A stretch of DNA of 63,886 nt, counting the filler, from Craspedostauros australis (lineage: Eukaryota): the NCBI GenBank assembly GCA_030167865.1. It is 10 parts of 10 records of this genome, joined end to end, with 100 filler letters (N's around TTAATTAATTAA, not from the genome) between each part and the next. Parts side by side here need not be neighbours in the genome. Positions count along the whole stretch, not along the records: positions 19,912 to 42,404 come from JALAGF010001115.1; 9 more parts are not named here. One strand, written 5' to 3'. The notes under the pieces were generated by a model. The model saw only the letters and a list, made by a program, of their open reading frames with translations. It searched no databases and was not told the DNA's origin. The translations under genes were made by a program, and so were the position numbers. Within the stretch, counting starts at the first letter, position 1; every line of letters begins with the position of its first letter. Positions 22,000 to 25,814 of this stretch are shown in pieces.

Positions 22000-22105
22000 C
22001 GTAAGTGGACTGAGGAGTCCACTTACGGTAACTGGATTGAGGAGTCCACTTACGAAGCCCAAAAATGCAAGGGGGTCGTAAGTGGACTGGTGAGTCCACT
22101 TACGA
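22000..22105. repeat. Three palindromic units CGTAAGTGGACT-N4-AGTCCACTTACG
   Basis: Hairpins at 22000-22027 (12-bp stem), 22028-22053 (imperfect) and 22076-22105 (13-bp stem). Confidence 0.9.
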
Positions 22106-23969: not shown

Positions 23970-24995
23970 ATGACGACCATCATGCAACCGCAGATCACGC
24001 CGATTGCGTTCACCTCACAGATCCTCAGCCAAGACACAAGCGCAGTGACTGCACCGGTGGGCATGACTTCGATGGAAGCAAGAAACCGCAGCTGTGACAT
24101 CATGTTGACTCAGCACAACGACGCAACAAGCACCGCCACGACAGCACCAGTAGTCGTGCCAGACAGCGCTGCTTCGTGCACAACTTCGCCTACTGCCACC
24201 ACCATCACCACAGCAGCCACAGCAGCCACAACAGTCACAGCAGCCACAACAGTCACAACCACCACCACTACTGCCACCGCAACAACCACCACAGCTGGAC
24301 CAGCACGAAAACGCACGAAAACTTCAGGATCGAGCGCGGCAACCAGCAAGAAAGCCAAGAAGCCGCAGATGAGATACGACCCCGACGTGCCGATGACCAA
24401 GGAGCAGGCCGCCGTCTGGCGTCGCGAACAGCGCAGGAAGCGCAACCGGGAGAGCGCGGCCGCGTCCCGCCAGAAGCAGCGCGATCGCATCACCGAACTC
24501 GAAGTCGAGATCAACGGTTACCAGACCAAGCACTCCTCCATCATGGCCAGGATTCAAGAATTGGAGCGCATCGCCGCCGCCAAGCAGATCACCATCACAT
24601 CCACCACCGAGACTCCGGCTGCCACAGACACCGACACCACTCCTTCCATCACTGTCATGCAGCCAGAATGCGTCACTGATGACGAAGCATCCCGTGCTGG
24701 TCGACACTCTGACGCCAGCAGCATCTCCGCCGATGCCACCGCATGTCCGCACACGACCGCACCAGCTTCGCCTGGACCGGCGTTCGTGCCTTCCTCGCTT
24801 CCCGTTGCAGTCTCACCCATTCCGTCTAACGTTGACTTTCTTGATTTCTCCCACACGCACATGCCACAGACACAGACACAACAAGAGCAGAAGCTCAGCC
24901 TTCTGGATGAGGTCAACGTTGCCATCCCAAGCACACACCAATTGAACATGGATCAGCCACCACTAAGGATTATCTCACGACAAGCTACGTCATGA
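23970..24995 (+). CDS. bZIP transcription factor, unspliced form (341 aa); HAC1/XBP1/bZIP60-like candidate
   Basis: Basic region and zipper WRREQRRKRNRESAAASRQKQRDRITELEVEINGYQTKHSSIMARIQEL. ACCATG start at 23970 after an A/C-rich leader. Confidence 0.92.
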   Translation: MTTIMQPQITPIAFTSQILSQDTSAVTAPVGMTSMEARNRSCDIMLTQHNDATSTATTAPVVVPDSAASCTTSPTATTITTAATAATTVTAATTVTTTTTTATATTTTAGPARKRTKTSGSSAATSKKAKKPQMRYDPDVPMTKEQAAVWRREQRRKRNRESAAASRQKQRDRITELEVEINGYQTKHSSIMARIQELERIAAAKQITITSTTETPAATDTDTTPSITVMQPECVTDDEASRAGRHSDASSISADATACPHTTAPASPGPAFVPSSLPVAVSPIPSNVDFLDFSHTHMPQTQTQQEQKLSLLDEVNVAIPSTHQLNMDQPPLRIISRQATS

Positions 24996-25539
24996 ATCAA
25001 CCAATCAACCATTCAAACAAACACACATACACACACACCAATCCAAACCAGTCAGCACCCACCATCCAACAAAGCCTGACTGCCGTACCCATCGTCGTCG
25101 ATGATTGGGTGAGATCGAGGTCACAAACCGACGAGACTTGGTCGCCGCCGCGCCCAATGGACATTTGATGCCAAGAGAGTACTCAGCAGCAGCTTCAACG
25201 CTCTGCGGTCTCTCGCTATTGGCTTCTCCCCCCGCAACACTGTCGGTGGCATGCATGCACACGCACGCATGCCACCATCGCACAGTTTGCTCTAATTACG
25301 TTCCGGTTCTAGCGATAGAATGACAGCGACGTCCCGTCCATCCGGCATCAAACCCGGCCGCGCCAAGTCCAGTCGCCTTTGTCCGACCAACCATCGAGCA
25401 CAATCATCGACGACAACAAACCGTCCAGATGACGAAACGAAAGTCGCTGCATCATGCGCTCCATCATTCAAAGATGGAGCAATCGATTGCTCGGCAACTC
25501 GTGTCATCGCTTCAACGACATTTAAGATCACCATTCCAG
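24985..25539 (+). other. Putative non-spliceosomal (IRE1-type) intron, 555 nt, highly structured
   Basis: Both junctions lie in 7-nt hairpin loops (AAG|CTAC and CAG|CAGT). No phase-compatible GT/GC donor near the end of the bZIP ORF. Nested internal inverted repeats; removal joins the frames. Confidence 0.65.
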
Positions 25540-25814
25540 CAGTGAAGATCAACGGTGCTGTTTCCACTAGTTCAATCGGTGTCTCGGACCCACAAGCGCA
25601 ACTACAACTGAGCAGTCAGTTGTCCGTCCTCAACCAGCCAGAGCCCTGCCTGTCGTCGTCATCGTCGCCGGCCGTGCAAACGGATATCAAGTTGGAACCT
25701 CTGGACACATCCCTCTTCCAGCCCAAGGTCGAGCCACTCCCGTCCCTCCTCGCGGATGTGGAATCGGAGGATGACTTCGGTGAGTTCCTGTTGGACGCCG
25801 TTCAATGGTTGTAA
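25540..25814 (+). CDS. Second coding exon of the bZIP gene (acidic/hydrophobic activation-like tail); spliced product 429 aa
   Basis: Same frame as the bZIP ORF. Reads AVKINGAVSTSS...IKLEPLD...KVEPLP...VESEDDFGEFLLDAVQWL*. Confidence 0.7.

Follow-up and report, generated by a model that had tools for sequence, protein, structure and literature searches.

A conserved bulged-C/CUAA element in the unconventional intron of a diatom bZIP gene and its possible role in bringing the message to IRE1

Introduction

IRE1 finds its one splicing substrate differently in yeast and in animals. Saccharomyces cerevisiae HAC1 carries a 252-nt intron processed by Ire1 and Trl1, with intron–5′ UTR pairing for repression and a 3′ bipartite element for targeting (PMC6627864, PMC4279078; all articles are cited from their accessible parts). 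Targeting of HAC1 requires translational repression, and as of PMC4279078, in the part accessible, the reader of the targeting element was unknown. Animal and plant messages are targeted by a hydrophobic nascent peptide (PMC11077094).

A bZIP gene of Craspedostauros australis raises the same question for diatoms. The gene lies in a window of 63,886 nt (the whole stretch of DNA analysed, filler included), and an earlier note had seen four nested helices in its 555-nt intron, reading them as a domain that compacts the intron and could control the unspliced message in the manner of HAC1. What is this fold for? The intron marks what is likely the unfolded protein response (UPR) switch in a major group of phytoplankton, and its short covarying RNA motif makes a testable pair with a candidate RNA-binding domain on IRE1 in a transformable diatom. 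Among the titles and abstract openings surveyed, largely from outside the subscription journals, no paper addresses a diatom IRE1 substrate or such an element. In their accessible parts, PMC5859163 does not mention bZIP, PMC4891664 mentions neither diatoms, stramenopiles nor algae, and PMC6738920 is about another gene.

Results

A bZIP message with a non-spliceosomal intron

Exon 1 (Table 1), whose start is taken as the first ATG in frame, encodes a bZIP domain at about 24417–24569 (Pfam bZIP_1, residues 150–200, E = 7e-07) and finishes on the codons ISRQ-A. The unspliced frame, 23970–24995, closes ISRQA-TS at a TGA (24993–24995) that sits within the 5′ splice-site hairpin. Spliced relatives place the donor cut between 24984 and 24985; the acceptor cut lies between 25539 and 25540. 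The ending of exon 2 is common to spliced-form homologues.

Table 1 Features of the bZIP gene and its intron (positions in the window)
Feature	Position	Strand	Basis
Exon 1, coding part, bZIP gene	23970..24984	+	ORF, Pfam, diatom homologues
5′ splice-site hairpin, GAC/GTC stem, 7-nt loop AAG/CTAC (cut at slash)	24975..24995	+	P 0.95
555-nt unconventional intron, ends CT...AG	24985..25539	+	spliced and unspliced relatives
A/C-rich linker, mostly unpaired	24996..25093	+	80 of 98 nt A or C
Scaffold stem, 5′ arm, long, interrupted	25094..25162	+	P 0.93–1.0 per helix
Multiloop side arm	25167..25226	+	P 0.98
Conserved core	25234..25296	+	strict pattern, covariation, covariance model
Small hairpin 3′ of core, in multiloop	25299..25328	+	P 0.96 for 25306–11/25316–21
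Scaffold stem, 3′ arm	25336..25414	+	pairing probabilities
Second stem, scaffold to 3′ splice site	25428..25508	+	P 0.81–1.0
3′ splice-site hairpin, TTC CAG/CAGT GAA (cut at slash)	25526..25550	+	conservation in relatives
Exon 2, coding part, new acidic C-terminus	25540..25814	+	ends in conserved GEFLLDAVQWL

Eighty related loci divide into 52 with both cut sites and an insert, 17 that are joined, and 11 truncated or variant loci in which one site is missing under our patterns (L003, L006, L007, L020, L023, L025, L053, L056, L064, L078 and L080). Merging the 53 introns (52 loci plus the window) at 90% identity left 44 distinct introns, and none of them, the window's included, allows an equivalent junction reading as GT-AG, GC-AG or AT-AC. 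One joined locus, L029, equals L031 minus its insert, the two being identical at 1,380 of 1,381 nt; because of this pair, we read the 17 joined loci as probable mRNA rather than intron-less genes. Among the 120 homologous proteins in the matches listed (the named ones from diatoms), 107 end no more than 30 residues from the ISRxA motif, nine continue past a VKI/VKT spliced junction and four match neither pattern. An unconventional intron explains such gene models, which end at ISRxA without exon 2.

The 555-nt intron of the window is backed by these relatives, from which its removal in C. australis itself is presumed. None of the sequencing runs containing the locus is recorded as RNA. Run X1, from this organism, yielded two contigs, none over the joint and none covering the intron, and is uninformative either way; one contig starts at 25538, the first base common to the spliced and unspliced forms, which is expected from a graph fork and is a weak hint only. 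The genome encodes IRE1 (one PF06479 match, in a 2,276-aa frame with a kinase domain). Searches for RtcB and for the T4-type tRNA ligase domain PF09511 gave no genome match, blanks that do not show absence.

Splicing swaps the C-terminus, with the spliced tail conserved. The first in-frame stop is intronic in all 44 distinct loci, so the intron serves as 3′ UTR of the unspliced mRNA, just as the earlier note had it; and because that stop comes 2–95 nt into the intron, the conserved element described below always lies in this 3′ UTR. Intron lengths run from 111 to 787 nt and all three frames occur (14/22/8 by remainder mod 3), making the in-frame length of the window's intron incidental. The exon 2 frame is already open within the intron (25296–25814, ATG at 25320, 172 codons), probably also incidentally, since the intron frames of relatives differ.

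The splice sites resemble those of known IRE1 substrates in part. The published consensus is CxGxxG in both loops (PMC11077094). The acceptor loop, CAG/CAG, fits the consensus shared by XBP1 and bZIP60, with CxGxxG in 44 of 44 introns (the exon side set by the search pattern), C at −3 in 44 of 44 and room for a 3-bp stem in 42. The energy model favours the acceptor's 7-nt-loop register only weakly (P 0.01 in the window, above 0.5 in 2 of 38 loci), and the invariance of splice-site columns is partly circular because our patterns preset several of them. The donor hairpin stem forms at P > 0.5 in 29 of 38 loci, and its loop lacks CxGxxG: of the 44 introns, 25 have C at −3 and 5 have G at +3, the window having neither. 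Chlamydomonas CrbZIP1, a published IRE1 substrate, likewise has an incomplete donor-loop consensus (PMC11077094). Membership of the IRE1-spliced HAC1/XBP1/bZIP60 intron class is probable and no stronger than that, since the donor loop departs from the consensus and the dependence on IRE1 is one that we infer.

In 35 of 44 loci the two exons could pair with each other beside the cut sites, like the XBP1 zipper (PMC4687415). A word (C/T)TAAGATCA, conserved in most introns about 15–20 nt upstream of the acceptor (25518–25531 in the window), can pair with exon 2 and is branch-point-like despite the non-spliceosomal intron. The 3′ splice 15-mer has two further genome matches against one control match, neither with a bZIP or a donor-like hairpin nearby.

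The intron folds as a whole on a variable scaffold

All eight arms of the helices first reported are present and complementary as written. The 321 nt of 25094–25414 that they bound fold to −141.1 kcal/mol, against −96.2 ± 5.7 for 100 dinucleotide shuffles (z = −7.89, no shuffle as good), significant as the earlier note had anticipated for a folded RNA domain inside this unconventional intron. Compared with 147 same-length tiles of the window (composition regressed), the segment stands at −4.9 SD; no tile goes below −4.2, a value set by a palindromic repeat at 22001, and the next stands at −2.1. The reverse strand is also stable (z = −6.46).

Pairing probabilities, computed in full context at 37 °C, support three of the four nested helices: the 14-bp helix (P 1.0), 25135–50/25355–69 (P 0.98–1.0) and the central 10-bp hairpin (P 0.98). 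The fourth, the 9-bp helix 25164–72/25344–52, is not predicted to form (P 0.03, or 0.01 at 15 °C); forcing it costs 3.0 kcal/mol and its arms pair elsewhere in the model. The window has three perfect 14-mer inverted repeats within 400 nt, a simple repeat among them, so the 14-bp helix alone is unexceptional; it is the whole fold that is exceptional.

The structured domain exceeds 25094–25414, adding the stem at 25428–25508 (z = −2.23; 3 of 200 shuffles as good) and the hairpins at both splice sites. The linker holds one small hairpin (25049–25082). The 5′ scaffold arm combines the two outermost of the reported helices with 25109–25132 and 25152–25162, and the scaffold as a whole provides 60 enclosing pairs.

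Relatives share this architecture. Intron interiors have a median fold z of −7.5 (42 of 44 below −3), against +1.1 and +0.3 for the flanking exon stretches (below −3 in 1 of 43 and 2 of 42), with 8–12 shuffles each and coding stretches as imperfect controls. Enclosing base pairs range from 25 to 149 over 38 loci and rise with intron length (rho 0.78), making compaction by the fold plausible, in keeping with the earlier proposal.

The sequence that builds the scaffold is not shared. Apart from its final 18–26 nt, the window's intron aligns with no relative, and the 44 introns form 26 groups that cannot be aligned with one another. Support for the window's outer helices, which have no alignable relatives for covariation, is thermodynamic; within two alignable groups, covariation of the outer stem is mixed (12 of 36 pairs; 11 of 47 with an unfavourable covariation term). 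Over the 38 loci the outer stem shows no clear sense-strand excess of G-U (G-U to A-C 138:130, or 72:78 over 22 groups; composition predicts 43% G-U). By computation, the scaffold stem is free in sequence while its pairing is kept. The helices first reported are this species-specific, variable scaffold, and a reading of them as the important part of the intron is not supported: their sequence is without an alignable relative and one of them is not predicted to form.

A short core is conserved inside the scaffold

The earlier note overlooked a conserved core at 25234–25296. It is formed by a 4-bp GCAA/TTGC helix, a bulged C (C25238), an A-U pair, a variable upper stem containing the 10-bp hairpin, and an unpaired TCTAAT tail (25291–25296). 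Of 44 distinct introns, 38 have it, three lack it (L067, L076 and L081) and three carry a degenerate form. A strict core pattern matches 30 of the 43 other introns and nothing in 184,048 bases outside introns; over both strands of the window its one match is 25234–25290.

Alignment A2, which holds only the 38 introns with the core, shows two-sided changes at 8 of 10 core pairs, the window included with G-C to A-U at two positions. Core cells are paired in 91.6% of cases, against 75.4% when shuffled and 28–43% when slid; none of 500 shuffles reaches the observed fraction, a statistic inflated by relatedness and by the selection of rows. Three upper-stem pairs that played no part in selection covary in 17, 17 and 15 of 22 non-alignable groups, where about 10 are expected (p ≤ 0.004). 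In all 38 loci the core forms at P > 0.5 inside no fewer than 25 enclosing pairs, and its tail is unpaired (median 0.97). The bulged C is found in every one of the 38 cores and the tail bases C, U, A and A in 37, 38, 38 and 37; this near-invariance is partly preset by the search pattern, which itself is without matches outside introns.

A covariance model, a check that the earlier note had suggested, finds the core in the introns of relatives. Over the window and the 80 loci it gives 52 matches, all downstream of a donor site: 48 lie inside the 53 complete introns and none in the 17 spliced loci. It recovers the held-out introns L006, L020, L023, L078 and L069, and L047 weakly, and gives no match in L051, L067, L076, L077 or L081. 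The window's own match (E = 4e-04) is that of a training-set member. The Rfam search proposed alongside it reached no family: in Rfam 15 the best window match has E = 0.13 and 18.9 bits against a gathering threshold of 37.4, and 10 related loci gave none at E ≤ 1. An iron-responsive element and an H/ACA snoRNA were considered and rejected (apical loop unconserved, candidate box base-paired, no Rfam match).

On a short-protein tree (43 of 44 loci, L075 being too short, plus four named proteins; 114 columns, deep forks unsettled), core-bearing rows cluster with proteins from Chaetoceros, Nitzschia and Seminavis, and the core therefore occurs in both centric and pennate diatoms. A long separate branch holds L076 and L081. 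As some diatom introns are without the core, the element is not needed everywhere. We are highly confident that the intron structure is a real, selected RNA element.

The tip of the side arm (25186–25206) is a second bulged-C hairpin matching the core helix, without the CUAA tail. Such an extra tail-less copy occurs in only 2 of 44 introns and is perhaps a local duplication or a convergent second site.

No support for intron–5′ UTR pairing and, L067 excepted, no hydrophobic peptide

Pairing of the intron with the 5′ UTR, raised by the earlier comparison with HAC1, finds no support. The best duplex of a 5′ region with its own intron has −19.6 kcal/mol, no better than the −19.7 obtained with other introns; over 32 of 44 loci (start codons inferred) the mean residual z is +0.06 ± 0.18, with the window at +1.2. 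No cause of the translational repression that yeast targeting requires (PMC4279078) was found in this system.

Among unspliced proteins encoded with a full-core or weak-core intron, 41 in all, none has a hydrophobic stretch behind the bZIP, and neither does any of the 111 listed homologous proteins without a spliced junction. The exception is L067, whose intron (749–1007, 258 nt) is long, structured and core-less: its unspliced frame encodes a 31-residue intronic hydrophobic tail resembling XBP1u or bZIP60u. In L081, exon 1 encodes a borderline Ala/Val/Thr stretch. The resulting contrast, 2 of 3 core-less loci against 0 of 41 core-bearing ones, is post hoc with one convincing case. Lineages that lost the core may rely on a hydrophobic tail instead, L067 being the example.

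A conserved CCCH domain lies at the end of diatom IRE1

The C-terminus of IRE1 (L086:8608–9060) holds a conserved domain of about 130 residues behind the RNase domain. All 120 listed relatives of this domain are IRE1 proteins (58–84% identical), and 115 of them carry a C-x10-C-x7-C-x3-H finger. Of the 150 more distant matches listed, 36 were picked for length and scanned with Pfam, and the IRE1 RNase domain is present in every one. The finger itself escapes Pfam; its nearest solved relatives are tristetraprolin-type fingers (E 0.003–0.2), and for the parts flanking it no known family was found. The AlphaFold model of the tail has a pLDDT of 47 and was set aside, and an atlas search, a lead only, returned CCCH clusters at 0.82 or lower.

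The finger occurs across diatoms, including Skeletonema and Cyclotella, and in green algae, and so does not track the element. A CCCH finger on green-algal IRE1 has been suggested to recruit mRNA (PMC11077094); an IRE1–CCCH fusion is hence not new. A cis element matching the finger would be.

Discussion

How might these parts work together? The gene would be the diatom counterpart of HAC1, XBP1 and bZIP60. Its mRNA would be exported with the 555-nt intron in place, and under ER stress IRE1, as we infer, would cut the two hairpin loops; the splice itself is seen in relatives. By computation, the long irregular stem brings the two cut sites closer and closes a multiloop, and covariation supports the conserved hairpin displayed there. 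The core is most likely a protein-binding tag through which unspliced mRNA is brought to, or docked on, IRE1 at the ER; with its place inside the intron, the tag would be erased by splicing and the mature mRNA set free. With neither 5′ UTR pairing nor a hydrophobic stretch, an RNA tag for delivery is the simplest reading, and we hold with about even confidence that delivery of the unspliced mRNA to IRE1 is the core's main job.

A candidate reader of such a tag is the conserved CCCH domain of diatom IRE1 itself, put forward from its sequence. A third route to IRE1, by a self-erasing intronic tag that the CCCH domain reads directly, is possible if doubtful. Should reading be direct, and we propose this tentatively, recognition between sensor and substrate might need neither a nascent peptide nor a separate carrier.

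Each known system shares some of these features. Like S. cerevisiae HAC1, the diatom gene has a long non-spliceosomal intron behind the bZIP, an early intronic stop, a new C-terminus after splicing and a stem-loop RNA signal with no hydrophobic peptide (PMC6627864, PMC4279078). It is set apart from HAC1 by position, since the diatom signal is intronic and removed by splicing whereas the HAC1 3′ bipartite element is kept in the 3′ UTR (same sources); it also differs in having no 5′ UTR pairing, no CxGxxG in the donor loop, and an IRE1 with a C-terminal CCCH domain. The introns of XBP1 and bZIP60 are short, with targeting by a hydrophobic peptide (PMC11077094), whereas those of diatoms measure 111–787 nt and, L067 excepted, come with an unspliced protein that lacks such a peptide. 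Green algae resemble diatoms in the IRE1 finger proposed as mRNA recruiter, but the accessible part of PMC11077094 describes no intronic RNA element in CrbZIP1. HAC1 introns of Candida CTG-Ser1 species are likewise variable, long (up to 848 nt) and bounded by two hairpins (PMC6222058); conserved internal structure goes unreported in the accessible part of that article.

A different role for the same core is as a silencer in the 3′ UTR. A cytosolic RNA-binding protein at the bulge and CUAA would repress translation or set the decay rate of the unspliced mRNA, keeping truncated bZIP scarce until the element is spliced out. This reading accounts for the element's constant place in the unspliced 3′ UTR (44 of 44 loci) and for conserved nucleotides that are unpaired or bulged, and it would supply the repression that 5′ UTR pairing cannot. 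The hydrophobic tail of L067 fits targeting better; by our reckoning, repression or decay of the unspliced mRNA probably explains the conservation about half as well as delivery. We consider a silencer unlikely as the main function, while noting that it is compatible with delivery to IRE1.

Compaction might also be all there is, with folds that join the two cut hairpins and hold a long intron clear of them, and a core that is just a folding nucleus or tertiary contact. The scaling of enclosing pairs with intron length, the free sequence of the outer stem across 26 non-alignable groups and the existence of short introns without the element all agree with this, but the near-invariant unpaired bases, the bulged C and CUAA, are left unexplained, and we judge compaction alone rather improbable.

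Less credit still is due to roles after or apart from delivery, with the core as a dock for a ligase or decay nuclease on the excised intron, a branch-point-like nuclear-retention signal or a released small RNA. CUAA does look like a branch point, and the yeast HAC1 intron holds a look-alike of this kind; that look-alike is, however, dispensable for splicing (PMC6627864, accessible part), the core lies 127–411 nt from the 3′ end of an intron without spliceosomal ends, and no Rfam family reaches threshold. We give such roles little chance.

A MITE, another DNA inverted repeat or a chance fold is very improbable. The perfect 14-bp terminal inverted repeat, the folding of both strands and an outer stem without clear G-U strand bias would suit a mobile element. 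Against this, the earlier note's concern about a multi-copy repeat fell away with a single match in the 65.9-Mb genome, the locus itself (by a search that can skip common words); there is no target-site duplication, the flanks of the terminal repeats differ, and dozens of orthologous introns build the same architecture from arms unrelated in sequence. Single copy, a core confined to introns and covariation of that core rule out a MITE. Block of initiation by yeast-type pairing of intron and 5′ UTR, known for S. cerevisiae HAC1 (PMC6627864), is scarcely credible here given duplexes no better than those with other introns.

The palindromic repeat that gives the lowest tile is a separate feature of the window. 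Positions 22000–22104 hold two full and one partial 28-nt palindromes built on CGTAAGTGGACT, a word with 5 matches against 0.15 expected, and they apparently lie within an intron of a minus-strand gene.
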